From the sequence record SRR20825010_4284: a stretch of 64,000 nt of DNA. One strand, written 5' to 3'. The notes below the pieces were generated by a model. That model ran no database searches. It was not told where the DNA came from and saw only the letters and a program-made list of their open reading frames with translations. Of this stretch, positions 1,178-63,673 are shown piece by piece (the first letter of the stretch is position 1; each line of letters begins with the position of its first letter). The position numbers and the translations under genes were made by a program.

Positions 1178-1204
1178 GCATGGTGCGTGATGCGTGATGC
1201 GTCT
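1178..1204 (-). repeat. NNCACGC heptamer array directly after the argJ stop
   Basis: Minus strand: TAG AGACGC ATCACGC ATCACGC ACCATGC. Confidence 0.7.
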
Positions 1205-2407
1205 CTAGGTCCGATACTCCGCATTGATTTTCACGTAGTCATAGCTGAAATCACAGGTCCATACAGTGCACTGGGCATCCCCGGATGCCAGATCCGCGCG
1301 AATGGTAATTTCCGGTTTTGCCATCAGAGCCGCGCCCTGTGCTTCCTCGTAGCTGTCCGCCACGCCTCCCTGTTCTACCAGCGGCAAATCACCCAGCCAA
1401 ACACTGACTTTGTCCACATCCAGCGCCGCAATCGGCGCCCGGCCAATGGCAGCCAAAATACGGCCCCAATTAGGGTCCGAGGCAAACAGCGCCGTTTTCA
1501 CCAGAGGGGAATGGGCAATGGTTTCCGCCACTACGCGAGCGTCACTCTCGCTAGTAGCGCCAGTCACTGTAATTTCCACAAACTTGGTGGCCCCTTCACC
1601 GTCACGCACCAGTGCCTGGGCCAGTTCAGTGAAGACTTCTTCCAGCGCCTGATACAGCAACCGGCTGTGCTCATCCAGCGCGGTAATTTCACCCATTTCG
1701 GCCTGAGCCGTGCTGATCAACATGCAGGCATCATTGGTGGAGGTATCCCCGTCCACCGTCACCCGGTTGAAGGATTTATCCGCCAGGGCTTTCACCCACT
1801 CATCCAGCAGTGACTTGGCAATCGGGGCGTCGGTGGCGATAAAACCAAGCATGGTCGCCATGTTCGGTTTGATCATGCCGGAGCCTTTGGACATCCCTGT
1901 AATCGTCACGGGCACACCATCCATTTCTACCCGCCGACTGGTGAGCTTGGGGTAGGTATCGGTGGTCATGATGCCTTCCGACGCCCTCCCCCAGTGATGG
2001 GTATCCAGTGCATCCAACGCCTTGGGTAAACCGGAGGCAAAGGCATCCAGCGGAAATTGCTCCCCGATAACGCCAGTAGAATACGGCAAGATTTCATCCG
2101 CATCGCAGCCTGCCGCTTTCGCCAGCAACTCACAGCTGGCCAGGCAATTTTCCAGGCCTTTCTTGCCGGTGCCCGCATTCGCGTAGCCGGTATTAATCAT
2201 CAGGTACCGTGGTGTGGTCGCAGCCAAGCGAGCCTTGGCGACCTGTACCGGCGCCGCACAGAAACGGTTGAGCGTGAAGACACCGCTGACACGGCTACCT
2301 GCTGCCAGCTCCAGCACCACCAAATCCTTGCGATTGGCTTTTTTGATACCGGCTTCCACTGCAGCAAGCCGCACGCCGGGGACCGGCAACCACTCAGACT
2401 GTGTCAT
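1205..2407 (-). CDS. argJ: Bifunctional glutamate N-acetyltransferase/ornithine acetyltransferase ArgJ
   Basis: IMTTDT, KGSGMIKPNMATML, DGDTSTND and RDGEGATK motifs. ATG at 2407 has better RBS spacing than GTG at 2410. Confidence 0.96.
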   Translation of the reverse strand: MTQSEWLPVPGVRLAAVEAGIKKANRKDLVVLELAAGSRVSGVFTLNRFCAAPVQVAKARLAATTPRYLMINTGYANAGTGKKGLENCLASCELLAKAAGCDADEILPYSTGVIGEQFPLDAFASGLPKALDALDTHHWGRASEGIMTTDTYPKLTSRRVEMDGVPVTITGMSKGSGMIKPNMATMLGFIATDAPIAKSLLDEWVKALADKSFNRVTVDGDTSTNDACMLISTAQAEMGEITALDEHSRLLYQALEEVFTELAQALVRDGEGATKFVEITVTGATSESDARVVAETIAHSPLVKTALFASDPNWGRILAAIGRAPIAALDVDKVSVWLGDLPLVEQGGVADSYEEAQGAALMAKPEITIRADLASGDAQCTVWTCDFSYDYVKINAEYRT

Positions 2408-2425
2408 CACGCTTTCCTTAACATT

Positions 2426-2533
2426 CAGCGACTAGTTTCTAGCTGCGAGCGACTAGTCATCATAAAGAAAAGCACCGATTTTCACCGGTGCCTTTGTTTT
2501 TCTCGTAGCTGGAAGCTCGTCGCTAGCAGCTGC
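2426..2533. repeat. Inverted pair of NAGCKDC heptamer arrays around a central hairpin (secA-argJ intergenic)
   Basis: Plus arm CAGCGAC TAGTTTC TAGCTGC GAGCGAC TAG; hairpin GCACCG...CGGTGC; minus arm CAGCTGC TAGCGAC GAGCTTC CAGCTAC GAG. Confidence 0.72.
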
Positions 2534-2534
2534 T

Positions 2535-9368: not shown

Positions 9369-9410
9369 GCTTCCCGCGTGTTGCCTGATGCGTGAAGCGC
9401 GCTGCGACTC
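9369..9410 (-). repeat. NNCACGC heptamer array after the ftsA stop
   Basis: Minus strand: TAA CAA GAGTCGC AGCGCGC TTCACGC ATCAGGC AACACGC GGGAAGC. Confidence 0.7.
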
Positions 9411-13772: not shown

Positions 13773-14835
13773 TGGCCACCTCCTCACACAGCGTGGCGGC
13801 ACGCTCTGCGCTATCCGCCATCGCCTGCTCACGGGCCCGCTCGGCGATTTGCGCCAGCAGGCCGCGCTCTGCAACCGGTTTCAGGGTGCCGGCAAGGCTT
13901 GCCGCACCCAGGTCCCGCTGGGGCAACAGCAGCGCGGCTCCGCGCTCTGACAACCAACGGGCATTCAATGTCTGGTGGTCGTCCACTGCGCTGGGCAGGG
14001 GCACAAACATGGCGGCCACACCTGCCGCCGCCACTTCTGCCACGGTCAGTGCACCAGCCCTGCAGATCACCAGATCCGCCCAGCCGTAGGCTTCCGCCAT
14101 GTCATCGATAAACTCGCTCACCTGTGCCTGCAGCCCCAGCGCCTGATAAATCGGCGCGGCTTCCGCCGTACGTCCGGCGCCACACTGATGACGCACCTGT
14201 ATATCGCGCCCCAGCACCGCCAACAGCAGCTCGGGCAAATCCTGGTTCAGCACCAAGGCCCCCTGGCTGCCGCCCAGTACCAGTACCCGCAAGCCGCCCT
14301 GATGTTGGGCATAGCGGCGAGCCGGCTCATCCAGGGCGGTAATTTCCGGGCGCACCGGATTGCCCACCCAGCAGGCCTGCGGATTACCAAAGGCACCCTG
14401 AAACCCTTCCAGGGTCACCGTGGCAAGACGGGACAACAGGCGATTGGTCAGCCCGGGAACCGCATTCTGCTCATGGACCACCACCGGCACCTTGCACAGC
14501 TTGGCTGCCAGTCCGCCGGGGCCGCTGGCAAACCCGCCAAAGCCCACCGCCAGCACCGGCTGACGGGCACGGATCAACTGGCGTGCCTGCAAGACAGCCC
14601 GCAGCAGATTGAAAGGGGCGGTCAGCTTGCGCTTGAGGCCACCACCGCGCAGACGGGACACGGACAGCTCGGCAATCTCGTAGCCGTACTGGCGCACCAG
14701 CTTGCCTTCCATGCCGTTTTCCGCGCCCAGCCAGAGAATCTCAAAACCGCGTTCACGCAGTTGGTCGGCCACAGCCAGCGCCGGGAATACATGGCCGCCG
14801 GTGCCACCCGCCATAATCAGGACAGTGCGACTCAT
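13762..14835 (-). CDS. murG: Undecaprenyldiphospho-muramoylpentapeptide beta-N-acetylglucosaminyltransferase
   Basis: [30 protein letters not shown]. Confidence 0.98.
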
Positions 14836-15989
14836 CGTGCTGCCCTCCCTCTGGCTTTCAGGTGGTCGGCTTCCGCCCCTGCGCGCAGGATCAAGCCAAT
14901 CATGGCGGCGGAGATCAACAACGAGGACCCGCCGTAGCTGATAAACGGCAGGGTCAAACCTTTGGTGGGCAACAGACCCATGTTCACGCCCAGGTTGATA
15001 AAGGCCTGGGAACAAAATACAAACGCGCAGCCATAAACCAGGTAGGCGTGATACAACAGCCCGCGCTCTTCCAAACGGTGGCCGACGCGAAACACCCGCC
15101 AGCCCAGCAAAATAAAGCCACTGATCAGTGCCACATTGCCGAGCAGACCCAACTCTTCAGACATCACCGCATAAACAAAATCCGTATGCGCTTCCGGCAG
15201 ATAAAACAGTTTCTGCACGCTGTTGCCCAAGCCCACGCCCAGCCAGTGACCACGGCCAAAGGCGATCAGACTCTGGGTAAGCTGATAACCAGAACCAAAC
15301 TGGTCTGCCCAGGGGTCCGTGAAGGTCATCAGTCGCGCCACCCGGTAGGGCTCGGCAAAGGCCACCAGCCCACCCAATGCCACCGCAATCAGGCCGATCA
15401 GCAAGAAGCGCAGGGTCGGCACGCCGGACAGGAACAACATGCCCATGGCGGTAATACCCAGCACCACCACTGCACCGAAGTCCGGTTCCAGCAACAGCAG
15501 CAGCATCAACACACCCAACAAGCCCAGCGGCAGCAGGAAGGCTTTCCATTCGGTTTCCAGCGCCGCCTTGCGTTGTGCGACATAGCCAGCCATGTAAAGC
15601 ACAAAGCACAGCTTGACGATTTCCGAAGCTTGAATCGTCAGGCCTGGCAAGGCGATCCAGCGGGTGGAGCCATTAACCGTTCGCCCCAGCCCGGGAATAA
15701 ACACCATCACCAATACCACCAGGGCCACTGGCAACATCACAAAACGCAAACGCTCCAGCAACGCCAGCGGCACCGCGTAATAGACAAAGGTGCCAACACC
15801 CAGCCCCAGCGCCAGATAAATGCCATGGCGCATGGCGTAATAGAAGGGGTCACCCAGGCGCGTTTCTGCAATCTGCAAACTGGCGGAGGACACCATCACC
15901 AGCCCCGCCAGCGCCAGCAAAATAGCAGTCCACAACAACGGCTGGTCGATACCCGTGCGGTCCACTTTCAGGATCATGCGCTCAGTCAT
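14832..15989 (-). CDS. ftsW: Peptidoglycan glycosyltransferase FtsW (SEDS family)
   Basis: Polytopic membrane protein with YLPEAHTDF and LPFISYGGSS. Confidence 0.97.
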   Translation of the reverse strand: MTERMILKVDRTGIDQPLLWTAILLALAGLVMVSSASLQIAETRLGDPFYYAMRHGIYLALGLGVGTFVYYAVPLALLERLRFVMLPVALVVLVMVFIPGLGRTVNGSTRWIALPGLTIQASEIVKLCFVLYMAGYVAQRKAALETEWKAFLLPLGLLGVLMLLLLLEPDFGAVVVLGITAMGMLFLSGVPTLRFLLIGLIAVALGGLVAFAEPYRVARLMTFTDPWADQFGSGYQLTQSLIAFGRGHWLGVGLGNSVQKLFYLPEAHTDFVYAVMSEELGLLGNVALISGFILLGWRVFRVGHRLEERGLLYHAYLVYGCAFVFCSQAFINLGVNMGLLPTKGLTLPFISYGGSSLLISAAMIGLILRAGAEADHLKARGRAAR

Positions 15990-17307
15990 GGCACACCTCC
16001 CGGGCACGGGCGGAGAAATCATCGCCGCGGGCAGCAAAGCCGCTGAACATGTCAAAAGAGGCGCATGCTGGCGACAACAACACCGCGTCACCCGGCTGTG
16101 CCAACGCATGGGCACGGGCAACGGCAGCAGCCATGTCAGCTACCAGTTCGCAGGGGGCAGCGGACATGCCCTGGGCCACGGTATTGCGGTCTTCTCCCAT
16201 CAACAGGGCGGCGCGTAAATATTGGCGAGCGGGTTCGGCTAGCGGGGAAAAATCCTGCCCTTTACCCTGGCCGCCCGCCACCAAAATGACTTTGCCTTGG
16301 ATGCTTTCGCCGATACCGGTGAGCGCGGCTAGCGTGGCCCCCACATTGGTGGCCTTGGAATCGTTGAACCAGCGCACGCCTCCGGCTTCTGCCACCAGCT
16401 GACAACGGTGGGGCAGACCGGTAAACGCTTTCACCGTGGCCAGTGCCTTGTCGCGATTCAGGGACAGCGCATCGCTGATCGCCAGTACCGAGAGAATGTT
16501 CATGGCATTGTGGTGGCCGGTCAACGCCAGCTCAGACAGCGACAGCAACGGCTCGCCCCGGCACAGCAGTTGGCCGTTTTCGCTATCCAGACGGTAATCC
16601 GCTTCCGGGTGGGCACCAAAACTGATCTGCCGCGCCACGGTGGCCGGCGGACGGGTAGCCAGATCATCGCGGTTCCAGACCGCCACCTGACAGCCGTCGT
16701 AAACACGCTGCTTGGCGGCCAGGTAATCCGCAAAGCTGGCATAGCGGTCCAGATGGTCCTGGGACACATTGAGAATCGTGGCCACTTCTGCACTCAGGCT
16801 GTAAGTGGTTTCCAGCTGGAAGCTGGACAATTCCAACACATACAAGCGGGCCTGATCGTCCAGCAATTCCAGCGCCGCCACACCCAGGTTGCCGCCGATG
16901 CCCGGGTTCATCCCACAGGCATCTGCTACCTGACCCAGCAGGGTTGTCACTGTGCTCTTGGCGTTGGAGCCGGTGATCGCCACCAGCGGCTCGCTGGCCG
17001 CACGGGCGAACAGCTCAATGTCGCCAATCACTTCTTTGCCATCCACGACCTGCTCGGCGATGGCCGGGGTCGATACCGCCACACCCGGGCTCACGATCAG
17101 GCGACGGGCCTTGCCCATCCAGCCTTTTTTGAAGCTACCGGTGTGAACTTTCAGGTCCGGAAATTCAGCGCACAGGGCATCCAGCCCGGCCGGCTCAGCA
17201 CGGGTGTCAATGGCGCGCACGGGCATCCCCTGATCCGTTAGATAACGGATCACGGAGCGGCCTGTTACACCCAGACCAATGACCAGATCAAACCCGTCTT
17301 TCGCCAT
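15982..17307 (-). CDS. murD: UDP-N-acetylmuramoyl-L-alanine--D-glutamate ligase
   Basis: ITGSNAKSTVT, ELSSFQLE, NDSKATN, SPACASFD. Start is ATG 17307 or TTG 17319. Confidence 0.97.
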   Translation of the reverse strand: MAKDGFDLVIGLGVTGRSVIRYLTDQGMPVRAIDTRAEPAGLDALCAEFPDLKVHTGSFKKGWMGKARRLIVSPGVAVSTPAIAEQVVDGKEVIGDIELFARAASEPLVAITGSNAKSTVTTLLGQVADACGMNPGIGGNLGVAALELLDDQARLYVLELSSFQLETTYSLSAEVATILNVSQDHLDRYASFADYLAAKQRVYDGCQVAVWNRDDLATRPPATVARQISFGAHPEADYRLDSENGQLLCRGEPLLSLSELALTGHHNAMNILSVLAISDALSLNRDKALATVKAFTGLPHRCQLVAEAGGVRWFNDSKATNVGATLAALTGIGESIQGKVILVAGGQGKGQDFSPLAEPARQYLRAALLMGEDRNTVAQGMSAAPCELVADMAAAVARAHALAQPGDAVLLSPACASFDMFSGFAARGDDFSARAREVCHD

Positions 17308-17323
17308 AAATTGACTCAATCCC

Positions 17324-18406
17324 CTATCGGATTTTCAGGGTCGCCAGACCCACCAGTACGAGAATTACGGTGATAATCCAGAACCGCACAATGATCTTCG
17401 GCTCCGGCCACCCCTTCAGTTCAAAATGGTGATGAATGGGGGCCATGCGGAAAATCCGCCGACCGGTGAGCTTGTACGAGCCCACCTGCAACATCACCGA
17501 TACCGTTTCCATCACGAACACACCGCCCATGATGAAAAGCACAATTTCCTGGCGCACGATTACCGCCATCACGCCCAGCACCGCCCCCAGAGACAGCGCG
17601 CCCACATCGCCCATAAACACCTGGGCGGGATACGCGTTGAACCACAGAAACCCGAGGCCCGCACCACACAGTGCAGCGGAAATAATCACCAGCTCACCAG
17701 CACCGGCCACATAAGGAATCTGCAAGTAAGTCGCAAATTCCGTATGCCCCCCGGCGTAGGCAAAGATGCCCAAAGCGCCCCCCACCAGCACGGTGGGCAT
17801 GATGGCCAGGCCATCCAGTCCGTCAGTCAGGTTCACCGCGTTGCTGGTGCCGTTAATCACAAAATAGGTAAGCACGATGTAGAACCAACCCATGTTGATG
17901 GCCACACTCTTGAAGAAGGGCACGATCAACTGGGTTTCCACCGGGCTTTGCGCGGAGAAGAACAAGGCACAACCGGCACCAAGCGCACCCACCGACAACC
18001 ACAGGTATTTCCAGCGGGCGGGCAAGCCGCGCGGGTTCTTTTCCACCACCTTGCGCCAGTCATCCACCCAGCCCACGGCGCCGAAAATGAACAGCACACC
18101 CAGGGTGATCCACACAAACCGGTTTTCCAGATCGCCCCACAACAGGGTGGAGATCACAATGGCCACCAGAATCAACGCGCCGCCCATGGTGGGGGTACCC
18201 GCCTTGCTCAGGTGGCTCTTCGGGCCGTCATCACGAATGGCCTGACCCACCTGCTTTTCCTGCAGTTTGCGAATCATGATCGGGCCGACCCAGAACGCGA
18301 TAAACAGCGCCGTCAGCACACTCAAGATGCCGCGCAGGGTGATGTACTGCACCACCAGAAAACCGCTGTGGTATTGCGCCAGATATTCCGCCAGCCAAAG
18401 CAGCAT
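17324..18406 (-). CDS. mraY: Phospho-N-acetylmuramoyl-pentapeptide transferase
   Basis: [29 protein letters not shown]. Confidence 0.99.
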
Positions 18407-19767
18407 CAGTGTGCCCCCCCTGTGTGTGTGCGTTCCTGTGTAAGCCGCTGCACCACCGCTTCCATACCGGCGCTACGGGATCCTTTCACCAACACCGTGC
18501 CGCCTTCTGCCAGCACCGGGGCACTCCAGCTCGCCGCCTGTTGATAGTCCTCGGCAATTTTTGCTGCGTCGCCATAACCCCGTGCGGCGGCCGCTGCACC
18601 GGTCATGGCAACCAAACCGGAAAGCCCGGCCTGACGAGCGTATTCACCCAGTTCCTCTACCAGCGAATCGGCCTGCGGGCCCAACTCGCCCATGGCGCCC
18701 AGCACCAGCATTTGTGGTGCCGGCTGCGCGGCCAGCCAGTCAATGGCGGCGCGCACTGAACCCGGGTTGGCGTTGTAGGTGTCATCAACCACGGCGCCGG
18801 CACCGGCAGCCTGGATATGCATTCGTCCGGGAACCGGTTTCAGTGCTGCCAGACGCGGCAACACCTGAGGCAGATTTGCGCCCAAGGCACGCACCGCCGC
18901 GCAGGCCATCAAGGCATTACTCACCTGATGCGCGCCGGGCAGCGGTACCGTCACGGTTTCGCCCAGCGGCTGAAGCACAAACTCCGCGCGATCGCGATGC
19001 AGGGTGATGTTTTCGGCATACAGGTCAGCACCGTTTCGCGTGCTTTCATCCATGCTGACCCGCACCACCGTCAAACCCGCGGCACGGGCTTCTTCAGTAA
19101 AGAAATCCGCGAAGCTGTCATCATTGTTGATGATCGCCTGACCACCCGGCGTACAACCGGTGAAAATCTCCGCCTTGGCATCGGCAATGCCCTGCATGGA
19201 ACCAAAGCCTTCCAGGTGCGCGCCGGTCACGTTAGTGACCAGCACCACCTGCGGGCGCGTCAGCGAACTGGTCCAGGCGATTTCGCCCGGCGCATTGGCA
19301 CCCAGTTCGATCACCGCGTAACGGTGCTCTGCACGCAAACGCAACAGAGTCAGCGGTACGCCCACGTCATTATTGAAGTTGCCATGGGTGGCCAGGGTAC
19401 CGTCACCCAGCATGGCCGCCGCCATTTCCTTCACCGTGGTTTTGCCGGCATTGCCGGTGACCGCCAGACGGGGCATATCGAACTGGGCGGCATAACCACC
19501 GGCAAGACGGCCCAGGCCTTCACGGCTATCGGCAACGCGCACCGCGCTCTCGAAGCAGTCCTGCTCACGCTCCACCAAGGCCGCAATGGCGCCACCGGTT
19601 TTGGCCGAGGCCAGAAAATCATGGGCGTCAAAACGGTCACCGCGCAAAGCAGCAAACAGGCAGCCCGGTTCGATGGCTCTGGTATCGGTGGCCACGGCAT
19701 TGACCTTCAGGTCTTCACCCTGCAAGGCACCACCGGTCCACTCAGCGATTTGTGACAGCCACATCAT
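18406..19767 (-). CDS. murF: UDP-N-acetylmuramoyl-tripeptide--D-alanyl-D-alanine ligase
   Basis: [30 protein letters not shown]. Confidence 0.97.
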
Positions 19768-21236
19768 TGCGCACCTCCCCGGGCGTTTAACGCCTTGCGG
19801 GCCAGGTCGCGATCATCACTGGGGTAACGCACGCCATCCACTTCCTGATAATCCTCGTGGCCCTTGCCAGCGAGCAAAATCACATCGCCGTCACTGGCCG
19901 CTTGCACGGTATCCATTACCGCCTGGGCACGTTCAACAATGACCTGCACCGACGCCGGGTCAGTAAGGCCTGAGCGCATGTCGTCGATAATCTTTTGCGG
20001 GTCTTCGCTGCGCGGGTTATCGCTGGTCAGCACTACCCGGTCGGCGCCGCGCTCGGCGACCGCCGCCATCTGCGGGCGCTTGCCGGTGTCCCGGTCTCCA
20101 CCACACCCTACGATGCAGAACAATCGGCCATGGAAATGAGCACGGCACGCCTGCAAGGCTTTTTCCAGCCCATCCGGGGTGTGGGCATAATCAACGATCA
20201 CGGTGGGACAGCCTGTTTGCTGTACCGGTTCCATGCGACCGGGCACCGGTGTTACCGTCGCCAGCGCACCGCCCAGTGAAGCAGTGCTAACGCCCTGACC
20301 GTGCAGAATCCCGGCAACGGCCATCACATTGCTGAGGTTAAAACGACCAAACAGCGGCAGCGTGACCGTCAGAGGGTCACCGCCCACGGCCAGTTCGGCA
20401 CGCATACCGTCGGCGGCAAAGGTGACAGCGGCACAGCGCACGGTGGCCCCCGGCTGATCGCCGAAGGTGACACAGCGCACCCCGTCGGCCAGGCAGCCGA
20501 TCAACGAATACGCCACTGGATCATCGCAATTGATCACCGCCAGCTTGACGCCGTCGCGGGTGAACAGCACGGATTTGGCTGCCAGGTAGGCTTCCATGTC
20601 GCCGTGGTAGTCCAGATGATCCCGGCTCAGATTACTGAACACGGCCACTGGCACCGGCGTGGAACCAAGGCGGTGCTGGTCCAGCGCATGGGATGACACT
20701 TCCATGGCCACACAATCTGCGCCCGCATCACGCACCCGGGCCAGACCGGCCTGCAGGGTAATCGGATCCGGCGTGGTATGACCGGTAATTTGTTCGCTAC
20801 CTTTCAGCCCCAGGCCCAGGGTGCCGACCAGGGCACAACGGTGGCCCAAGGCATTGAGTGCATCGCGCAGGAACCAGGTAATGCTGGTTTTGCCGTTGGT
20901 ACCGGTCACACCGACCACATTCATGGCCGCACCGGGCTCGCCATACCAGCGGGCCGCCAACGCACCAACCTGACGGCCCAGCCCTGGCAACGCCACACAG
21001 GGCACCACCTGGTCCTGCTGAATCTCAAACGTGTCTGCCTCCGCCAACACCGCCACCGCGCCAGCGGCAATCGCCTGACTAACAAACTGGCGACCATCGC
21101 TGGCCACGCCCGGCACGGCCAAAAACAGATCGCCGGGGGCAACGTTACGGCTATCGAGCTGTAGCCCTGAAAGCACAACACCCGCCGTAGAAGCTGGCAG
21201 GGTGACATCGGGTAGCAGTTGCTGGAGGGTCATCAT
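19764..21236 (-). CDS. murE: UDP-N-acetylmuramoyl-L-alanyl-D-glutamate--2,6-diaminopimelate ligase
   Basis: GTNGKTS, MEVSSH, DYAHTPD, DNPR (meso-DAP specificity), AGKGHE. Confidence 0.98.
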
Positions 21237-22954
21237 GAGCGATCCTCCGCATCCGGGCCGCCGGCCAGCAGCCCGTCAGGCTTGTCCGGTGGCACATGCA
21301 GTGAACGCAACACGCCACCCATGATGTTGGAAAATGCGGGCGCCGCGACCAGACCACCGTAATAGGCATCGCCGCCCGGATCATCGATCACCACCACGGT
21401 GACAATGCGCGGATCCGTTGCCGGGGCCAACCCGGCGAACAAACCGATGTAATTGTCATCGGCATAACCGCCGGCCATCACCTTGTGCACCGTGCCGGTC
21501 TTACCCGCCACCTGATAACCCGGCACCTGTGCACGGCGCGCAGTGCCCACACGGCTGACCACGGTTTCCAGCATCTGAACCAACTGTCGAGCCGTGCCCT
21601 TGCCGATCACCTGCTCACCCTGCGGCAGACCATCCACCTTTTTCAGGGTCAACGGCACTTTGACGCCATCGTTGGCGATCACGGCATAGGCCTGGGCCAA
21701 CTGCACCGCAGACACGCTCAAGCCATAACCATAGGACAGCGCCGCCCGCTCCACATCCCGCCACTTGCTGCGCAGCGGCAGCAAGCCGTTGCTCTCACCG
21801 GGGAAAGCAATATGGGTGGACTGGCCAAAGCCGAAACGCTCCAGGTACCCCGGCAAGGCCAGCGGATCCATGGCTAGCGCCAGCTTGCTGGTGCCCACGT
21901 TGGAGCTTTTGGTCAGCACCGTGGTGATGTCGATGACACCATAATCACGGTGATCGCGAATGGTTTTGCTGCCCACCCGCAAGGTCCCCGGGTGGGTATT
22001 GATGGTGGTGGACGGTGTCACCATGCCCATTTCCAGGGCCGCCGCCACGGTAAACGGCTTCATGGTGGAACCCGGCTCGAACAGGTCCGTCACGGCCCGA
22101 TTACGCAGCGCGCCAGTATCCAGATTGCCGCGATTGTTGGGGTTGTAGGCTGGCTGATTGACCATGGCCAACACTTCCCCGGTGCGCACATCCAGCACTA
22201 CCGCACTGCCACCCTTGGCCTTGAATTTTTGCACAGCACCCAGCAATTCCCGGTAGGCCAGGTATTGCAGGCGCAGGTCGATGCTCAGGGTGACATCTTC
22301 ACCGGGCTCTGCCGGCTCCAGCACTTCAATATCCTGAATTACCCGGCCCAGCAGATCGCGCACCACTTTCTTGCGCCCGGAATGGCCGGACAGATGGTCT
22401 TCCATGGACAGTTCAATGCCTTCCTGCCCCTGATCATCAATATTGGTAAAGCCCACCACATGGCTGGCCACTTCGCCGGCCGGGTAATAACGACGGTACT
22501 CTGTCAGCGAATAAACGCCGGGCACATTCAGATTCAACACCGTCTTGGCCGCTTCCGGGGCCAAGCCACGCTCCAGGTAGATAAACTCGCGGGATTCATG
22601 CCGGCGGACTTTGCGGGCAAACGCTTTCGGGTCGATCACCGGGTTGCCAGCCAGGCGACCCCACTGATCCTGATGCTCCATGGCTTCGCGGGGATTCACC
22701 CACAATGTCACCACCGGCGTGCTCACCGCCAGCGGCTTGCCGGCACGGTCCCGGATCACACCACGGTGCGCAGCCAGCGGCTCCACACGCAGGTTACGAA
22801 TGTCGCCCTGGTGCGCCAGAAAATCATGCTGAATAACCTGCAGATCCACCGCCCGAACCAACAACAGACAGGCACACACCGTCCAGAAGCCCAGCACAAA
22901 GCGCCAGCGCATCGGGTGATTCGGTTGCCGTGTCTTGCGGGCCTGCTTCTTCAT
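21233..22954 (-). CDS. ftsI: Penicillin-binding protein 3 (division transpeptidase)
   Basis: EPGSTMK (SxxK), KSSN and KTGT motifs. Confidence 0.97.
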
Positions 22955-23217
22955 GGCCGGATCAGCACTCTCTCATCGGTCTTGGGTAATTTCATGCCCA
23001 GCTTTTCCCTGGCCAGGCGCTCCACCCGGGCATAGCTGCCCCAGGTGCTGTGCTCCAGCAACAACTGACTCCACTGGCTTTCCAGGCGAGTCTGGCGCTG
23101 CTGCAAGCGTTGACTTTCATCGGTAAAACGGCGCGCCTGATGCACGCTGTAACTGACCGCCAGCGCGGACATAACCACCAGCACCACCAGGATGCGAATC
23201 ATCCACGGGGCCACCAT
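22951..23217 (-). CDS. ftsL: Cell division protein FtsL
   Basis: Short TM helix plus coiled coil (LLLEHSTW...RVERLA) between rsmH and ftsI. Confidence 0.92.
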   Translation of the reverse strand: MVAPWMIRILVVLVVMSALAVSYSVHQARRFTDESQRLQQRQTRLESQWSQLLLEHSTWGSYARVERLAREKLGMKLPKTDERVLIRP

Positions 23218-24155
23218 CAGGCCACCTTCTCCGCGACGCGCAGCACCGCACTGCGCGAACGCACATTTACTTTCAATTCCGCTTTACTGGCATGCAGGGC
23301 TTTGCCCACTGGCTCCAGCCGCTGAGGCATTTCATCGCCCAACGGCAAACCGCCACGCCCCTTCGGCGCCCGGCCGGAATGGTCACGAATAAACAATTTC
23401 ACGATCCGGTCTTCCAAAGAATGGAAGCTGATAATGGCGAGACGCCCGCCGATGGCGAGCGTCTCGAGGGACTGTTCCAGCACTTGATCCAGCGCATCCA
23501 GTTCCCCGTTTATATGTATCCGCAACGCCTGAAAGCTGCGCGTGGCCGGATGCTTGCCCTTCTCGTTACGCCCCAGCACGGACTCAATCAAATTGGCCAG
23601 CTGCAAGGTGCGAGTAATCGGCTGCTCTTTGCGGGTTTCGCAAATGCGCTTGGCAATCCAGCGGGACTTTCGCTCCTCGCCGTAGCGATACAGCACATTG
23701 GCGATGTCTTTTTCCGCCGCGTGAGCCAACCACTGCGCCACGCTCTCGCCCTGGGTCGGGTCCATGCGCATATCCAGCGGCCCATCGCGGAGAAAACTGA
23801 AGCCGCGCGCCGCATCGTCCAGCTGTGGCGAGGACACGCCCAGATCCAGCAACAAACCATCAATGGGCCGGCCGGCTTGCTCCACCACTTCTGGCAGACA
23901 ATCAAAACGGTTGGCGACCATATGAAAGCGGCTGTCGCTGGCTGCCAGTTCCTGCCCGGCGGCAATGGCTTGCGGATCACGATCAATGCCGGTCAGGCGA
24001 CCGCTGTCGCCAAGGCGCGCGAGCAAGGCACGGCTATGGCCACCGCGACCAAAGGTGCCGTCCACATAAAAGCCTTCGCTCTGGCTGAACCACATATCCA
24101 GCACCTCTTCCAGCATGACCGGCTGGTGTGCGTACTGCGTGCCTTCGCTCGTCAT
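23217..24155 (-). CDS. rsmH: 16S rRNA (cytosine1402-N4)-methyltransferase
   Basis: DGTFGRGGHS, DLGVSSPQLD, SFHSLEDR. Confidence 0.98.
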   Translation of the reverse strand: MTSEGTQYAHQPVMLEEVLDMWFSQSEGFYVDGTFGRGGHSRALLARLGDSGRLTGIDRDPQAIAAGQELAASDSRFHMVANRFDCLPEVVEQAGRPIDGLLLDLGVSSPQLDDAARGFSFLRDGPLDMRMDPTQGESVAQWLAHAAEKDIANVLYRYGEERKSRWIAKRICETRKEQPITRTLQLANLIESVLGRNEKGKHPATRSFQALRIHINGELDALDQVLEQSLETLAIGGRLAIISFHSLEDRIVKLFIRDHSGRAPKGRGGLPLGDEMPQRLEPVGKALHASKAELKVNVRSRSAVLRVAEKVA

Positions 24156-24595
24156 CAGAACGACAGCTCCTGCACACTTTCCGGCAAGGCTGCCGGATCC
24201 AGGGTGCCATCCACGTCGGACCAGCTTTCCTCTTTCCAGATTTCGAACCGGTGCATCTGACCGATCAGCATGGCGCGTTTTTCCAGGCTGATGGCCGCCC
24301 GCAACTCCGGCGGCACCAGCAGACGGCCATTGCTGTCCATCTCGATTTCAGCAGCCTGACCCAGGAAGCGTCGCTTGAGCTGGCGCACCTGCGGGTTGGA
24401 ATCACGCTGCTCGGACAGCTTCTTGGCGGTATCCATGAATTCGGCACGTGGGTAAAGCGCCAGGCAGTCGTCGAACGGGTGCAACGTGAGCACAAGCTGG
24501 CCGCCGCACGTGTCGATTAACGACGCACGGTACCGGGTCGGCATGGTTAGCCGCCCTTTGGCATCCAGATTGAGTGCTGCGCTCCCAGTAAACAC
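24155..24595 (-). CDS. mraZ: Division/cell wall cluster transcriptional repressor MraZ
   Basis: Two DxxGR motifs (DAKGRL, DSNGRL); first gene of the dcw cluster. Confidence 0.97.
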   Translation of the reverse strand: MFTGSAALNLDAKGRLTMPTRYRASLIDTCGGQLVLTLHPFDDCLALYPRAEFMDTAKKLSEQRDSNPQVRQLKRRFLGQAAEIEMDSNGRLLVPPELRAAISLEKRAMLIGQMHRFEIWKEESWSDVDGTLDPAALPESVQELSF

Positions 24596-24644
24596 TGGCC
24601 GTCCTCTTGCTCTTGGTTATGCGGTTCCTTCCCAGGGCCTTTCG

Positions 24645-24739
24645 TCCCACTTCGTGACACCTGTCACGACGGAATTCCCACTTTTTCCCACTTTTCACCA
24701 CATTGAGACACTCTAGGGCCACTGCAAAGCCCAAGTCAA
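24645..24739 (-). promoter_or_regulatory. dcw promoter with MraZ-binding direct repeats
   Basis: TTGACT (24739-24734), 18 nt spacer, TAGAGT (24715-24710), then GTGGTG/GTGGGA/GTGGGA at 10-nt period and a fourth GTGGGA at 24650-24645. Confidence 0.75.
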
Positions 24740-24951
24740 GCGTGACGACATCGGGAAACGTAAAAGAATTTCCAAATAAATCAGACTGTTAGCAGGCTAT
24801 TTGAGCAGAAAAGAGGGAGCCGGGAAGCGATAAACGGAAGGAGTTCCGTGACGAATCAGAGCGCTGGGACGCGCAGGTGAGAAAGCACTTTAAGTGTTAG
24901 ACAGATTAGTTATTAATATTTTTATTTATATATCACTATTCGCGAAATGCA

Positions 24952-25740
24952 TTACCAATCTGCAGAGGGAAGCCGATAGTTACCGCTATCCAGCAAGTCC
25001 ACGCCGCACTCCAGCTGGGCCAGCCAGTCAAGAAACCGCCCCACATTGTCGCCCTGAAAGTACCCACCATGCTGGGGCACAATCATCCGCGGCGCGAGCT
25101 TGCGCACCATCGCCACCCACAGCCGACAGGCTCGATTGCTGGCCATGTAGCGGCGATGAAACCCCTGCATGCTGTGGCAATGATCCGCAAAGTTATCCAC
25201 GCACCCTTCTTCCCCGCCCAGGCTGGCGCCCACATCGCCGGAAAAAAGGATACCGCTGAGCGGATCATAGAAGCTGAAGTTGCCCACGGAATGCAGAAAA
25301 TGCGCCGGCAACACCCACAGCTCGGTACCGGCAAACGGCAACACCTTGCCTTCGTCGGCGATACCCAGAATCCGCGCCTGCAGTTGCTCCCCCATCTTGC
25401 CGGTGACATAGGACGATGCCAGGTGCGGCAAAAAGCGGGACCACAAACGACTGACCACCACCTGGCAGCGGGTATGCATTAACCAACGCGGCAGCGATGC
25501 GATGATGTCCGGATCCTGGTGGGACGCCAGGATATACTCCAGGCCGTCCAGATTAACGCGACGACTGAGCGCAATGGTCAAAGGGGTGTAGGTCAGGTCG
25601 CCACCGGGGTCGATCAGCGCGGCCCGGTCGTTATGGCGGATACAGAACTGGTTGGCCTGCACGCCCTCGCCCACCACCAGGTCAGCAAAGCGCAGAACCT
25701 CATGGCCATTTTCACTGAAGAGGGTATCCACCTGTGCCAT
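24952..25740 (-). CDS. Metallo-beta-lactamase-fold protein, ODP (oxygen-binding di-iron protein)-like
   Basis: LIDPGG, SHQDPD, PAHFLHS, LFSGD, FHRRYM, PQHG motifs; no flavodoxin domain. Confidence 0.8.
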   Translation of the reverse strand: MAQVDTLFSENGHEVLRFADLVVGEGVQANQFCIRHNDRAALIDPGGDLTYTPLTIALSRRVNLDGLEYILASHQDPDIIASLPRWLMHTRCQVVVSRLWSRFLPHLASSYVTGKMGEQLQARILGIADEGKVLPFAGTELWVLPAHFLHSVGNFSFYDPLSGILFSGDVGASLGGEEGCVDNFADHCHSMQGFHRRYMASNRACRLWVAMVRKLAPRMIVPQHGGYFQGDNVGRFLDWLAQLECGVDLLDSGNYRLPSADW

Positions 25741-25768
25741 GCCGAGCTCCGAACTGCGTGAGCGGGCA

Positions 25769-26273: not shown

Positions 26274-26280
26274 GGGGCGA

Positions 26281-26310
26281 ATTCTAGTTGAAGCCGTTGA
26301 TAGTTGACAG
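26281..26310 (-). promoter_or_regulatory. Putative sigma70 promoter of rnpB
   Basis: TAGAAT -10 followed by GC-rich TCGCCCC just before the RNA 5' end; candidate -35 CTGTCA lies inside the repeat arm. Confidence 0.55.
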
Positions 26311-26410
26311 CGGAGAGTTGATAGCCAAGAGAAAAAATCGTACCCAAACCCCTCCCGGCAAGCGGTTTCCGGTTTTTCGCTATCAACTGTCAATTATCAA
26401 CTCTCAACTG
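26285..26410. repeat. Inverted pair of NAGTTGA heptamer arrays between rsmI and rnpB
   Basis: Plus arm TAGTTGA ag CCGTTGA TAGTTGA CAGCGGA GAGTTGA TAGC; minus arm CAGTTGA GAGTTGA TAATTGA CAGTTGA TAGC. Confidence 0.8.
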
Positions 26411-29566: not shown

Positions 29567-30195
<629 letters not shown>

Positions 30196-30774: not shown

Positions 30775-30882
30775 GCGCTGCGCGTCGGCAACACGGCCGA
30801 CGCCTCACGCAGGCCCCACGAAAAACAAAAAGCCCGCTCAATGAGCGGGCTTTTGCGTGTTGCATGCAGCGTGCTGCGTCTC
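30775..30882. repeat. NNCACGC heptamer arms on both sides of the dolP/sspB terminator
   Basis: Plus arm AACACGG CCGACGC CTCACGC; minus arm GAGACGC AGCACGC TGCATGC AACACGC. Confidence 0.68.
30827..30854. terminator. Bidirectional Rho-independent terminator
   Basis: AAAAAGCCCGCTCA-A-TGAGCGGGCTTTT between convergent genes. Confidence 0.85.
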
Positions 30883-36905: not shown

Positions 36906-36940
36906 GAGACGCAGCACGCTTCACGCGGCATGCAACACGC
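36906..36940 (+). repeat. NNCACGC heptamer array after the tas stop
   Basis: TAG AAA GAGACGC AGCACGC TTCACGC GGCATGC AACACGC. Confidence 0.78.
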
Positions 36941-36961
36941 CGAAATGATTGCCCCCTCCCC

Positions 36962-40176: not shown

Positions 40177-40287
40177 GTAGGTCGCATTAGCCGTAGGCGT
40201 AATCCGACAGATTTACCGGGCTTATTTCAAAAACGCAGGGCCGCAATGCACACCTGTCGGGTTACGCCTACGGCTAACACGACCTAC
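40177..40287. repeat. Inverted pair of GTAG-type REP sequences (REPIN-like)
   Basis: GTAGGTCGCATTAGCCGTAGGCGTAATCCGACA (40177-40209); reverse complement of 40255-40287 is GTAGGTCGTGTTAGCCGTAGGCGTAACCCGACA. Confidence 0.85.
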
Positions 40288-40297
40288 ACGACTATTA

Positions 40298-49812: not shown

Positions 49813-49970
49813 GAGACGCAACACGTGACAGGCTTCACGCAACAACGCGGACAATGCCTGTCTTTGAGCCGATAGCAAGAGGCCGCGCCCAACGCTTGGG
49901 CGCGGCCTCTTCGGTTAAAAACAACACGGCATAGCTACACGTTTAAACTTTCAACTTTCAACTCCGCTCA
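49813..49970. repeat. Composite element: NNCACGC arm, GC hairpin, GTTGAAA arm
   Basis: TAA GAGACGC AACACGT GACAGGC TTCACGC; AAGAGGCCGCGCCCAA-CGC-TTGGGCGCGGCCTCTT (49877-49911); TTTAAAC TTTCAAC TTTCAAC abutting the DUF4139 stop. Confidence 0.75.
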
Positions 49971-51566
49971 CAATCCCTCTACACCGCTCAGGGTAGTCTC
50001 TTCCGGGTAACGAATTTCGAAACCTTGTTTGAACCTTTCCTCGCCCCCGGCGGGCAAAGTGAACAGCCAGCGTTGCAGCCCTTTCACATCATCCACATCG
50101 CGGGCATCTGCGGCCTTGCCCTTGGCCGTGACGGTAATATCCTCGTTGCCGGCCACCGGCAGACGATCCAGCAGATCCACCGTCACCGCCTTGTCGTAAT
50201 GTGACGTCAGAGTGATGTTCTTCAAGGCAGACAGGGTGCTCTCCTTGCTGATCAGGCCGACCTCCCCTTGCTGTGATGGTTCGCGAACCACCGCAATCTG
50301 CAGGCGCGGGTCATCACCGAAACTCATCTTCACCTGCTCGCCCTGCTTGATGCTGTCGCCGCGGTGATAACGGGCCAAACGCTGACCGTCACGTAACAGC
50401 GTGACGCGCCCCGCCAGCCAGGGCAGCGCGCTGGTATTCGTCCATTCCCCCACCAACAACACCGCCGGCTGCTGCCAGAGATAACTTTCGCGGCTGAGCG
50501 TCACCGGCAGTTCAGCCTGCTGATAGGGCACCCGGGCACTGGCGTTACCACTGGCCAGCGACAGCGGAGACGAAAGCGGCACGCGCATATCAAAACCGTG
50601 AGCCACCGGAGCGGCCACCGGCATCGCCTCCACGTGCTCTGCCATATCGGCTTCAAAGGCGGCCGGTTCCGCCATCACGCTGCGCAAGGACTGTTTGCGC
50701 ATTTCCGGTTGCGGCGTCGCCAGACGCACAATCCAGGGCTGCGGATCCGGCAGGTGACGATAACCGGCCGGCACCAAGCCCAGGGTGGCACTGACATTCT
50801 GCCAGTCCTCCCCGGTGCGGTTATGAATCAGAGCAATACCGGTAACGGCTACCGTTTCACTGCCGCTATCCAGATCGACCCGCAGTTGATTCTGCCAGCC
50901 GGCCTGGCCGGTGAAATATTGCAACTCAACCTGCGCGGTGGACGGCGTTTCGGCACCGACAGTGAGCACCAGTTCGCGGCTGCGAGTCTGCCCCTGTCCC
51001 AGCTGCTGCCGCTCCTGCCGCAGCGCCTCCAGCTTGCGTTGCTGTTCTTCTCGGGTCACCACACGCTGATTAATCGCCACCTGTCGTTGCGCCACCGCCT
51101 TGCCAATGGACTCCCAGGCACTGGCCCATTTTTCCACCGGCACCTGGGCAAACACGGCCTCACCTTGTGGCGCCTGCCCCATCAGGGATTGCAGATGATT
51201 AATCTGTTGCTGGTCCAGGCTGTCTGCTGCCCGGGCGGCGGCCATGGCCTGCTCCAGTTCGAGAATCGCCGCATCCAGCTGGGCACGACGGGCCGACACA
51301 TCGTCCTCGGCAATGGCGAATCCTTGTCGCATCCCCAGCAAATCGGCACCTTTCACTGCCACTTGCAGACTATCCAGATCCAGCTCCGGCAGCCCTCTCA
51401 CCACCAGCTGGTGCTCACCGGTGGGCAAGGCCTGAGAGAAAGTACGGCTGAGATGGGCCTGGGCGGGAAACAACACCGCCTTGCTCACCGGAGCGGTAAC
51501 AGCAAAGTCAGCGGCAAAAAGGGGAACAGGGATCAGGGCACAGGCAAGCAGTAACGAACGTTTCAT
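49968..51566 (-). CDS. Secreted DUF4140/DUF4139 domain protein (MuiA-like)
   Basis: Signal peptide, V(L)FP.QA start, coiled coil, NRTGEDWQNV, LLDRLPV...EDITV. Confidence 0.78.
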   Translation of the reverse strand: MKRSLLLACALIPVPLFAADFAVTAPVSKAVLFPAQAHLSRTFSQALPTGEHQLVVRGLPELDLDSLQVAVKGADLLGMRQGFAIAEDDVSARRAQLDAAILELEQAMAAARAADSLDQQQINHLQSLMGQAPQGEAVFAQVPVEKWASAWESIGKAVAQRQVAINQRVVTREEQQRKLEALRQERQQLGQGQTRSRELVLTVGAETPSTAQVELQYFTGQAGWQNQLRVDLDSGSETVAVTGIALIHNRTGEDWQNVSATLGLVPAGYRHLPDPQPWIVRLATPQPEMRKQSLRSVMAEPAAFEADMAEHVEAMPVAAPVAHGFDMRVPLSSPLSLASGNASARVPYQQAELPVTLSRESYLWQQPAVLLVGEWTNTSALPWLAGRVTLLRDGQRLARYHRGDSIKQGEQVKMSFGDDPRLQIAVVREPSQQGEVGLISKESTLSALKNITLTSHYDKAVTVDLLDRLPVAGNEDITVTAKGKAADARDVDDVKGLQRWLFTLPAGGEERFKQGFEIRYPEETTLSGVEGL

Positions 51567-51673: not shown

Positions 51674-51839
51674 GTGAGCTCAAAGTTGAAAGTATAAAGT
51701 TGAAACGCAGAAAAGCATCGGCTGTAGCTGTGAACGCAAAGAGGCCGCGCCCAGAATGCATGTGGGCGCGGCCTCTTTGTCTCAATGTGGCAACACTTAG
51801 CTCGCGCTTTTCAACTTTGGACTTTGAACTTTTCACTCA
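51674..51839. repeat. MITE-like element: inverted GTTGAAA heptamer arms around a GC hairpin
   Basis: Plus arm GCTCAAA GTTGAAA GTATAAA GTTGAAA; hairpin CAAAGAGGCCGCGCCCA...TGGGCGCGGCCTCTTTG; minus arm GTGAAAA GTTCAAA GTCCAAA GTTGAAA. Confidence 0.8.
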
Positions 51840-52950: not shown

Positions 52951-53010
52951 TGCATGCATCAGGCAACACGCAACACGCGTGAAGGCGTGGTGCGTGAGGC
53001 GTGTTAGCGT
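52951..53010. repeat. Head-to-head NNCACGC heptamer arms filling the hisD-hisC gap
   Basis: Plus arm TGCATGC ATCAGGC AACACGC AACACGC; minus arm AACACGC CTCACGC ACCACGC (C)TTCACGC. Confidence 0.78.
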
Positions 53011-54329: not shown

Positions 54330-54335
54330 AATCTA

Positions 54336-54478
54336 TTTTTACCACAGAGGGCACAGGATTCACTGAGGAAAAGACCAGGCTTTTTCTATCACACAGATCA
54401 ACGGCGACTCTCGCTCAACACCACATCAACCGGCGTTAGCGGTTTACTCTGGGAGTGCCGTGACCTCGGTGATAAAAA
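54336..54478. repeat. Inverted pair of 9-nt-period arrays (CACNGAGNN) between hisG and hisD
   Basis: Plus arm TTTTTAC CACAGAGGG CACAGGATT CACTGAGGA; minus arm TTTTTAT CACCGAGGT CACGGCACT CCCAGAGTA. Confidence 0.65.
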
Positions 54479-54481
54479 ACA

Positions 54482-61036: not shown

Positions 61037-61210
61037 ACAGATTGCCAGCGACGCAGTGAAAGCACGAACCAGCCTGAAAGCAAAGCAGCCGTGCCCAATG
61101 CCTGGACGCGGCTGCTTGCTGGCACACCCACAACCCACATTGCTGCTCGCCTCGCCACCAACGGCCCACCACCACCTGCCAACGCCATTCACCTAGCACA
61201 CAAAGACCAA

Positions 61211-61226
61211 TGGCACAATTATTGCT
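61211..61226 (+). promoter_or_regulatory. sigma54 -24/-12 site upstream of rpoN
   Basis: TGGCAC-AATTA-TTGCT matches TGGCAC-N5-TTGCW. Confidence 0.75.
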
Positions 61227-62787: not shown

Positions 62788-63087
62788 ATGCAAATTAATA
62801 TCAGCGGTCATCACCTGGATATTACCGATGCCTTGCGTGCCTATGTGGGTGACAAATTTTCCCGCCTGGAGCGCCATTTCGATCAAATCACCAGCGTCCA
62901 GGTGATTCTCTCTCCGGAACCGAAAACCCATAAAGCCGAATCCACGATTCATATTTCCGGAGCCGATGTCTTCGCCACCGCTGAGGCCGGAGACATGTAT
63001 GCAGCGATCGACAAGCTGACGGACAAGCTGGACCGCCAGATTCTCAAACACAAGGAAAAGGCCGTCAGCCACAAGCACGGTCACTAA
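62788..63087 (+). CDS. hpf: Ribosome hibernation promoting factor
   Basis: MQINISGHH, DMYAAID, DRQILKHKEK. Confidence 0.96.
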   Translation: MQINISGHHLDITDALRAYVGDKFSRLERHFDQITSVQVILSPEPKTHKAESTIHISGADVFATAEAGDMYAAIDKLTDKLDRQILKHKEKAVSHKHGH

Positions 63088-63102
63088 CCCAAAGCGACAA
63101 TT

Positions 63103-63576
63103 ATGCGAGTTCGCGAACTACTGACTCTGGCCCGCACCCATCATGGCGTGCAGGCCAGCAGCAAGAAACAACTGCTGGATCAGGTTGCACAGCTGGCCGC
63201 GGCCAGCTGTGACAGCCTCAATGAACAGGAGGTCTTCGATGCGCTGGTGGCCCGGGAAAAACTCGGTTCCACCGGCATTGGCGAAGGCATTGCCATTCCC
63301 CACTGCCGGCTCGGACACTGCCAGCAAGCGGTCGGCCTGTTATTGAAACTGGAAAACCCCATCGATTTCGACGCCGTTGACGGACACCCCGTGGACCTGG
63401 TGTTTGTGTTGCTGGTCCCCCAGGACAACCCGGAACAGCATCTCAAGACACTCAGCCACCTGGCATCCCTGTTCAACGACGACAGCTACCGTGCGGAACT
63501 GCGCCACAGCACCGATAACCAACACCTCTATCAAACAGCCGTAGAGTCCGAAGCGGAGTTGCGACTGGCATCATGA
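63103..63576 (+). CDS. ptsN: PTS IIA-like nitrogen regulatory protein
   Basis: REKLGSTGIGEGIAIPH, IDFDAVDG.PVDL. Confidence 0.95.
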   Translation: MRVRELLTLARTHHGVQASSKKQLLDQVAQLAAASCDSLNEQEVFDALVAREKLGSTGIGEGIAIPHCRLGHCQQAVGLLLKLENPIDFDAVDGHPVDLVFVLLVPQDNPEQHLKTLSHLASLFNDDSYRAELRHSTDNQHLYQTAVESEAELRLAS

Positions 63577-63577
63577 A

Positions 63578-63673
63578 GGAACGCAACAAGCTTTCACGCA
63601 TCATGCAACACGCCCTAAACACCCCCTTGTCTATCGATTTTGCGTGCCAGCGTGCTGCGTGTGGCGTGCCAGC
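63578..63673. repeat. Inverted pair of NNCACGC heptamer arms between ptsN and rapZ
   Basis: Plus arm GGAACGC AACAAGC (T)TTCACGC ATCATGC AACACGC; minus arm GGCACGC CACACGC AGCACGC (T)GGCACGC. Confidence 0.75.

Follow-up and report, generated by a model that had tools for sequence, protein, structure and literature searches.

A 64,000-nucleotide stretch of DNA from sequence record SRR20825010_4284 (hereafter the window) carries, just downstream of stop codons, short arrays of degenerate 7-nt units that often occur as inverted pairs. These arrays are probably gene-less arms of cassettes resembling the intervening sequences (IVSs) of 23S rRNA, and they probably provide binding sites for a ring-shaped protein. 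In related genomes, arrays of this kind frame genes of one small four-helix-bundle family (PF05635/TIGR02436), and how abundant an array family is goes along with whether the genome has a gene that this family frames.

Heptamer repeats were already noticed in the earliest genomes of cyanobacteria and Xanthomonas, and the short tandemly repeated repetitive (STRR) sequences of cyanobacteria are related repeats of this kind. To our knowledge, no function or partner has been found so far for bacterial heptamer repeats. The arrays described here give these long-unexplained sequences a candidate partner protein. The genus provides a natural comparison of many close genomes, in which families range from a handful to hundreds of copies and the rise in copy number accompanies a gene for a small ring-forming protein framed by the same arrays. 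There is also a value for annotation, as arms can supply the stop codons and last residues of housekeeping proteins (e.g. hisC in the window). Binding of 4–5 heptamers by the ring, the nature of the target (RNA or DNA) and the effect on transcript ends all become testable.

Heptamer arrays downstream of stop codons

Judged by its sequence, the window is Alcanivorax DNA; its AlgW is 98% identical to Alcanivorax and 79% identical to Alloalcanivorax. The closest comparison genome (G001) has 85% of sampled words in common with the window and is 99.2% identical across 17 kb. A first-pass annotation, made from the letters of the window alone, had named the genes next to the arrays and described the arrays as stop-anchored, with a period of 7 nt. 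NCBIfam supports its names for argJ, secA, ftsA, rsmI, dolP, sspB, the tas-like reductase, algW/degS and the DUF4139/MuiA gene, and likewise for hisC, hisD, hisG, lptB and ptsN.

We inspected the sense-strand flank after every stop codon in the window. An array was called when self-match within the first 50 nt after the stop reached at least 14/21, and lags of 4–12 were compared. A lag of 7 was called in 6 of 36 3′ flanks, compared to 0.2 in shuffled sequences and no more than one for any other lag; none of the 38 5′ flanks qualified. At a threshold of 13/21, 12 regions lie within the 5,473 non-coding bases of the window and 15 within its 58,527 coding bases. For the genus, we analyzed 400 kb each from G058 and G041. 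Lag-7 arrays were present in 58/222 3′ flanks of G058 (a figure to which a duplicated block in this first 400 kb adds ∼5 arrays) and in 28/245 of G041, versus 12/211 and 7/252 5′ flanks, respectively. Other lags gave at most 3, and shuffles ∼0. In this block, the genes and arrays of ∼14,000–33,000 of G058:C1 reappear 186,206 bases further on, at ∼200,000–219,000, which reflects either a large duplication or an assembly repeat. These data bear out the claim of stop-anchored, period-7 arrays.

The arrays are also biased toward stop codons and face one another, as had been proposed. Of 81 oriented intergenic arrays in G058, 52 begin within 15 nt of a same-strand stop. Neighboring arrays form 15 convergent and 0 divergent pairs in G058, and 14 and 0 in G041. 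Unit number has its mode at 4–5 (66 of 89 arrays in G058, 41 of 51 in G041), with a small tail of long perfect arrays; because detection requires ∼4 units, shorter arrays are under-counted. Pattern searches gave a similar picture. Three CAYGC units at 7-nt spacing yielded 151 matches in G001, compared to 2 for the reversed control. A search with AGTTGANAGTTGA, a pattern that equals its own reverse and for which a reversed control is uninformative, returned 28 matches versus ∼0.4 estimated by chance.

At five G001 loci (L002, L019, L022, L024 and L029), CACGC arrays have a second setting that is not stop-adjacent; a terminator hairpin with a T-run comes first there, followed by a small GCCGC-ttcg-GCGGC hairpin and finally the array. 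Locus L196 (G058:C1:3764432-3767734) holds, at positions 240–342, a perfect GAGCCCG-type array of ∼13 units beside a Y1_Tnp-like open reading frame (ORF).

Arms in the window are ∼30–35 nt long and consist of 4–5 units of 7 nt in fixed order (Table 1). CACGC-type arrays lie 3′ of argJ, ftsA, sspB, tas, algW, hisD and ptsN, with onsets 1–9 nt past the stop, and their copies have a unit order in common: GACGCA / GCACGCT / TCACGCR / NCATGCA / ACACGCS. With this common order, they are copies of a ∼35-nt motif with an internal 7-nt period rather than plain microsatellites. The secA array is of AGCWGCT type, and those of rsmI, DUF4139 and hisC are of AGTTGAN type. Of the four heptamer families distinguished in the first-pass annotation, NAGTTGA and GTTGAAA merge into one. 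The dolP/sspB site named there holds for sspB; dolP has only a weak decayed tract, as does lptB. The 9-nt analogue reported after hisG was recovered as two inverted arms in the hisG-hisD spacer, and relatives carry the same CACAGAGNN-type 9-nt motif after the hisG stop.

At rsmI and hisC, the arrays run into the coding ends and provide the stop codon. Arm pairs with stem-forming terminal inverted repeats occur at hisD-hisC, rsmI and dolP/sspB, and paired window arms fold into interrupted stems (z scores of –4.1, –4.3, –5.1 and –6.5); single arms do not fold. Between algW and DUF4139 lies a hybrid pair, in which a CACGC arm and an AGTTGAA arm surround one hairpin. The DUF4139/MuiA-family gene (49968–51566), found in only 12 of 20 syntenic genus genomes, is bordered on each side by GAGGCCGCGCCC hairpin copies and AGTTGAA arms.

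Table 1. Positions of array arms and of the RNase P RNA gene in the window. Fractions of 21 are self-match scores; z and kcal/mol values refer to predicted folds.
Feature	Position	Strand	Remarks
CACGC-type arm, ∼4 units, 1 nt past argJ stop (1205-1207)	1176..1204	-	lag-7 self-match 16/21
AGCWGCT-type arm immediately 3′ of secA stop	2499..2534	-	13/21; weak inverted partner 2432-2459
CACGC-type arm, 5 nt past ftsA stop	9370..9410	-	lag-7 self-match 15/21
Inverted partner arm of rsmI element, adjoining rnpB 5′ end	26290..26335	+	
AGTTGAN arm across rsmI end; stop codon 26397-26399 within a unit	26372..26410	-	pairs with 26290-26335, fold z –5.1
Decayed partner arm past dolP stop; shares terminator hairpin with sspB arm	30778-30820	+	
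CACGC-type arm past sspB stop	30851..30882	-	lag-7 self-match 15/21; fold z –4.3
CACGC-type single arm, 5 units, 5 nt past tas-like reductase stop	36906..36941	+	14/21; alone unstructured, z –0.2
CACGC-type arm immediately past algW/degS stop	49813..49850	+	other heptamer families at same site in other species
AGTTGAA arm past DUF4139 stop	49941..49967	-	16/21; 7-nt indel versus G001 at 49964
AGTTGAA-type arm upstream of DUF4139; inverted partner of hisC arm across hairpin	51683..51709	+	15/21
AGTKNAA arm across hisC end; encodes final residues SEKFKVQS and stop codon	51795..51835	-	
hisD-hisC spacer: CACGC arm and its own inverted arm, forming a hairpin	52960..53003	-	fold –22 kcal/mol, z –4.1
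hisG-hisD spacer: two inverted arms of 9-nt-period analogue, CACAGAGNN type	54335..54481	. (unassigned)	
Decaying CACGC-type arm, 3 nt past ptsN stop	63580..63616	+	inverted partner 63645-63680 before rapZ
RNase P RNA gene (rnpB)	25895-26274	-	Rfam, bacterial class A, 326.9 bits

Four-helix-bundle genes between inverted arrays

A link between heptamer tracts and TIGR02436 genes had been mentioned in the first-pass annotation, which proposed listing the genes between paired arms, and it holds as an empirical rule in three samples. In close relatives of the window, the genes that lie between paired arms are four-helix-bundle genes. TIGR02436 genes number two in G001 and three each in G058, G041 and G044, with none in array-poor G046. 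All 10 strong matches in the four genomes that have the gene, including both in G001, lie between an array and its inverted copy, the arms being reverse complements. The genes occupy three conserved loci, namely next to coaBC, in the interval from a transporter gene to cysC, and in the glyA-nrdR spacer; each locus has a heptamer family of its own. Within the window, no arm pair encloses a PF05635/TIGR02436 ORF. Only ORF-less forms are present there, in agreement with the earlier statement that the window encodes no such candidate.

By profile, the four-helix-bundle proteins belong to PF05635, and one gives a weak match to Pfam bAvd. The PDB relatives 2gsc and 2rld have five chains each, and for Xanthomonas S23p, a homopentameric toroid built from four-helix bundles has been described (PMC4990558).

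We then tallied the gene in larger samples. In a family sample of 61 genomes, it occurs in 15/17 and 15/17 genomes of the two array-bearing genera and in 2/4 of a third; it was found in none of the 23 genomes from the remaining six genera. The 64 matches in this sample have an array upstream in 62 cases and on both sides in 56. Class-wide, 63 of 401 genomes have the gene, a tally that includes one genome flagged as unpublished, whose sequence was not inspected. At 40 loci from 38 class genomes, a lag-7 array lies near the gene in 36 (on both sides in 23), and other lags give at most 2. Finally, among 72 metagenome loci with sufficient flank, lag 7 was seen upstream of the gene at 42 loci and downstream at 47, with 35 loci showing it on both sides, and no other lag exceeded 8. 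Lag 8 was seen at 8 loci and lag 9 at 4, which is consistent with the 9-nt analogue of the window.

Array abundance and gene presence go together. Counting the CACGC and YAGTKRA families across the 61 genomes, we found 0–24 matches (median 0) in the 29 genomes that lack the gene and 0–791 (median ∼95) in the 32 that have it. The correspondence extends to individual families. Eight genomes have at least 70 CACGC matches, and a CACGC-framed gene is present in 4 of these by a strict rule and 7 by eye, compared to 2 of the other 53 genomes. At least 20 YAGTKRA matches were found in 20 genomes; YAGTKRA-like arms frame a gene in 17 of these (19 if two weaker cases are counted) and in 3 of the other 41. 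This contrast recurs within two separate clades of the genus, grouped by hisD identity. AATKGAY arrays (3–13 matches) were found in the four genomes whose gene has AATKGAY arms, with 0 in G041, and GGGACTC arrays (7 loci) are confined to G115, the genome whose gene GGGACTC frames. Hence, array families are abundant mainly in genomes that also have a gene with arms of the same family.

One genome of another genus in the family (G022) has 31 matches of the reversed control CGYAC at 7-nt spacing, hinting at a further heptamer family. Its single four-helix-bundle gene is framed by GCAAGGR arms, a heptamer other than CGYAC.

Turnover of arrays and explanations for their origin

Three CAYGC units at 7-nt spacing were found in 17/17 genomes of the window's genus, with 5 to 412 matches, and in 9/17 of the second genus; elsewhere in the family sample, matches were at chance level or not found. 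YAGTKRA arrays follow another profile, ranging from 0 to 379 matches. Presence/absence and family turnover at orthologous sites, both anticipated in the first-pass annotation, were seen as well. Twenty orthologous 17-kb loci keep synteny, yet the array family differs at the same site. After the algW stop, some array is present in 18 of 20 species, and depending on the species it is of CACGC type, at least 15 perfect GACGCCT units, AGTTGAA, YAGTKAA or TAATTGA. The hisD-hisC spacer holds a CACGC hairpin, a GCCAGAC hairpin or neither. HisC in the window's clade terminates in array-encoded residues and an array-borne stop; in other species it ends differently. At glyA-nrdR, G046 and G056 have no element, G001, G054 and G047 have an AGTTGAA element with two arms but no gene, and other genomes have a gene-loaded element. 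The ptsN array shows decay by point mutation across species. Unit number is shown to change by slippage, the DUF4139 arms of the window and G001 differing by one 7-nt unit.

In an alignment of the lptB-rpoN spacer, the variable block begins right at the stop codon and ends right at a conserved promoter-like motif. This motif, TGGCAC-N5-TTGC (sigma-54 promoter-like, ∼61200–61225, upstream of rpoN), is kept in 7/7 aligned genomes and forms the right boundary of the variable spacer.

Such turnover, along with copy numbers of 5 to 412 among species of one genus, is what might be expected of elements moved by a transposase encoded elsewhere, in the manner of miniature inverted-repeat transposable elements (MITEs) or of REPINs, which consist of repetitive extragenic palindromic (REP) sequences. 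The REP/REPIN system comprises short extragenic repeats with a gene 3′-end bias, frequent inverted pairs and copy numbers that vary widely among relatives, and the gene for the REP-associated tyrosine transposase (RAYT), which is inherited vertically and present in single copy, has repeats of its own type on its flanks. Y1-transposase matches number 0 in array-poor G046 and 5–6 in array-rich G044 and G058, in keeping with this idea. However, heptamer arrays flank none of the 15 Y1_Tnp loci that were examined; most of these loci have classical palindromic REPs (GTAGGAGC, GTGGGAGC and GTAGGTCG types) on their flanks. No target-site duplication was seen at the array sites, and arms of different families share one hairpin. 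On these grounds we reject RAYT as the mobilizer and regard transposase-driven movement in general as very improbable. A reverse transcriptase partner was likewise rejected, since no RVT_1 match was found in array-rich G041 or G044.

The reading we favor is built on a cassette. The full unit would comprise a heptamer array, a PF05635/TIGR02436 gene and an inverted array, a design matching that of the ORF-bearing IVS of 23S rRNA but located between protein genes. The data establish the anatomy of the arrays, their enrichment, the association and co-occurrence with the gene, and slippage, whereas we infer binding and its stoichiometry, spread and RNA processing. Because the ring of solved relatives has five subunits and arms have 4–5 heptamers, each subunit may bind one heptamer, on RNA or DNA. 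The protein's own sites would then frame its gene, and the same protein or a sister protein would have additional sites in the hundreds of post-stop arms. Placement at 3′ ends could reflect tolerance of inserts there, where arms can even replace final codons and donate the stop. New copies would arise by some copy process, and old ones would decay by point mutation. Paired arms would form long interrupted stems and, by analogy with IVS stems, could act as RNase III-type processing sites or 3′-end structures. The first-pass annotation had offered two options, that the arrays are empty sites or non-autonomous copies of an element, or that they are periodic sites of an oligomeric RNA/DNA-binding protein. 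The association with a gene family that it foresaw does exist (PF05635/TIGR02436), and none of the outcomes named there as refuting was seen. This reading is thus supported by association, each option remaining putative.

Several observations weigh against the cassette reading. The match between family and gene is not one-to-one. G010 has 201 YAGTKRA matches, but AATTGAT and ACGAGCT arms frame the two genes present there; it has only 1 orphan AATKGAY locus. G037 has 99 CACGC matches and no CACGC-framed gene, and G049 (24 matches) and G047 (5) have arrays with no gene at E ≤ 1e-10. Conversely, G003, G008 and G022 have the gene and neither counted family, and in G218 arrays occur at the gene only, with no orphans. 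Moreover, because related genomes are non-independent, the support is weaker than the co-occurrence counts suggest. Where spacers are co-directional, single arms are mostly but not invariably sense, the sense:antisense ratio being 24:6 in G058 and 5:6 in G041. The hybrid CACGC/AGTTGAA pair implies that arm pairing cannot be the sole role. Lastly, the protein has no known nuclease or transposase domain, and hence the proposal lacks a mechanism of spread.

The arrays could alternatively be host cis-acting RNA elements of the 3′ UTR (spacers, terminator-flanking stems, or processing or stability signals) that are selected independently of the four-helix-bundle protein, with the genes merely sitting within such structures. 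Arms lie on the sense strand just past stops, beside terminator-like hairpins; paired arms fold well (z of –4 to –6.5); and an array is retained after algW in 18/20 species despite the change of family. Contigs from four metatranscriptome-type libraries cover the region and one crosses the algW/DUF4139 arms, although contigs give no ends, strand or level and cannot prove a transcript. We nevertheless consider such an origin unlikely. It leaves unexplained the recurrence of a few fixed heptamer families at hundreds of sites, the tracking of family abundance with the family-framed gene, and the near-lack of arrays in the 29 gene-less genomes. Decay of the ptsN array argues against strong constraint, and a spacer is not required, given that array-less genes have terminators 17–27 nt from their stops.

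Polymerase slippage alone could instead have produced the arrays as ordinary long simple-sequence repeats, among which heptanucleotides are reportedly the most frequent class in many prokaryotes (Mrazek 2007, as summarized in PMC4679880). On this account, the arrays would have neither partner nor function, and their link to the gene would be a by-product of permissive spacers. The unit-number difference between near-identical genomes fits, as does the existence of perfect arrays of at least 15 units. Slippage in situ, however, predicts site-specific heptamers, whereas we see ∼5 recurring families, fixed unit order, leaders and CGCG trailers. Array length is capped at 4–5 units, orientation is tied to genes, and arrays frame 62/64 and 36/40 genes of one small family, with other lags near zero. 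These data make slippage as the sole origin improbable.

We also considered that the arrays might serve as stop traps in all three frames, or might adopt a non-B DNA form, for example the G-quadruplex suggested for Xanthomonas heptamers. AGTTGAA, YAGTKAA and GCCTGAC units hold a stop triplet, which the 7-nt period places in all three frames, and the same frame argument has been made for TAACTGA (PMC4679880). The CACGC and AGCTACR units contain no sense-strand stop triplet. As for quadruplexes, no family here has G-tracts, and neither G-runs nor a quadruplex-forming feature was seen in the array units. We therefore give either idea almost no weight.

Relation to known repeats and other features of the window

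The closest published parallel for the arrays themselves is the GGGAATC / GGGGAYT heptamer of Xanthomonas and Nostoc (Rehm et al. 2015, PMC4692102). It is mostly intergenic and stop-proximal, with its function unexplained, and it occurs as 70–75 inverted pairs per genome, favors ∼4 units, and varies in length and sequence at the same site among related species. The arrays of the window are similarly intergenic, within 50 bp of a sense-strand stop, often in inverted pairs and composed of ∼4 units. In Xanthomonas and Nostoc, a single G-rich family was described and interpreted as forming a G-quadruplex, whereas the Alcanivorax genus has at least 5 families without G-tracts. Rehm et al. draw no link to a protein (PMC4692102). 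Three Xanthomonas-type GGGRATY units were not found in any of the 401 sampled class genomes.

The parallel for the framed genes is the ORF-bearing IVS of 23S rRNA with its S23p gene (PF05635), in which terminal inverted repeats form a stem cut by RNase III, and the S23p ORF is preceded by tandem heptameric repeats whose number varies among strains (Warrier et al. 2016, PMC4990558). Alcanivorax cassettes likewise consist of a small four-helix-bundle gene between stem-forming inverted repeats. Unlike the S23p IVS, they are located between protein genes, and the same genomes also have hundreds of ORF-less arms that lie at the 3′ ends of genes. The window sites and the cassettes of relatives lie between protein genes or adjoin rnpB, and none is inside a 23S rRNA gene.

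In Beggiatoaceae, cyanobacteria and Bacteroidetes, TAACTGA heptamers occur in sets of 2–6 at many intergenic sites, some overlapping stop codons, and a multimeric RNA-binding protein was proposed as their partner (MacGregor 2015, PMC4679880). Most of these sets face a downstream start codon and they comprise one exact heptamer rather than degenerate families; a four-helix-bundle partner is not proposed. Avd, the accessory protein of diversity-generating retroelements, is PF05635-like (PMC10053308) and thus of the same fold family as the Alcanivorax proteins. Unlike those retroelements, G041 and G044 show no RVT_1 match.

The likeness to REPIN-RAYT lies in 3′-end-biased repeats that are often inverted pairs, in wide copy-number variation, and in a gene flanked by its own repeat type. 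The differences are that the four-helix-bundle partner has no known nuclease, that the arms are 7-nt periodic rather than palindromic, and that repeats of another kind flank the RAYT-like genes found in these genomes.

Heptamers close to stop codons in Xanthomonas have been published, as have those of an S23p IVS; the general link between protein and heptamer array apparently is not. Our search of published articles, with supplements outside its scope, found no paper stating such a link, only the single-IVS observation. We tentatively suggest a wider rule, one that could well prove wrong. Heptanucleotide arrays in bacteria generally might be populations of sites for cognate pentameric S23p/Avd-like proteins, with one heptamer per subunit, and this might extend to Xanthomonas GGGAATC, cyanobacterial STRR and TAACTGA. 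Such a system would be a transposase-free counterpart of REPIN-RAYT that seeds gene 3′ ends, donates stops and tails, and makes RNase III-type stems in mRNA.

Other window genes identified by NCBIfam include the dcw cluster, sspAB, petABC, hisCDG, murA, lpt genes, rpoN and hpf. In an Rfam scan of the window, RNase P RNA alone scored above threshold, and no Rfam family overlies the arrays. Because the RNase P RNA gene is located there, a 147-amino-acid ORF on the opposite strand is not a gene. That ORF was first taken for the neighbor of rsmI, and the rsmI element is therefore bounded by the rsmI stop on one side and by the rnpB 5′ end on the other.

In one RNA run, a 77-nt skip was seen in the hisD-hisC spacer, which may be the allele of another strain. 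Classical palindromic REP pairs are present in the window at 1040–1150, 40185–40290 and 36960–37040. They belong to two families, of GTAGGTCG...GGATTACGCC type and GTGGGA.CTTGCCTGCAAGCGAT type, and both are also found beside Y1-transposase (RAYT-like) genes in related genomes (L189, L195 and L196).

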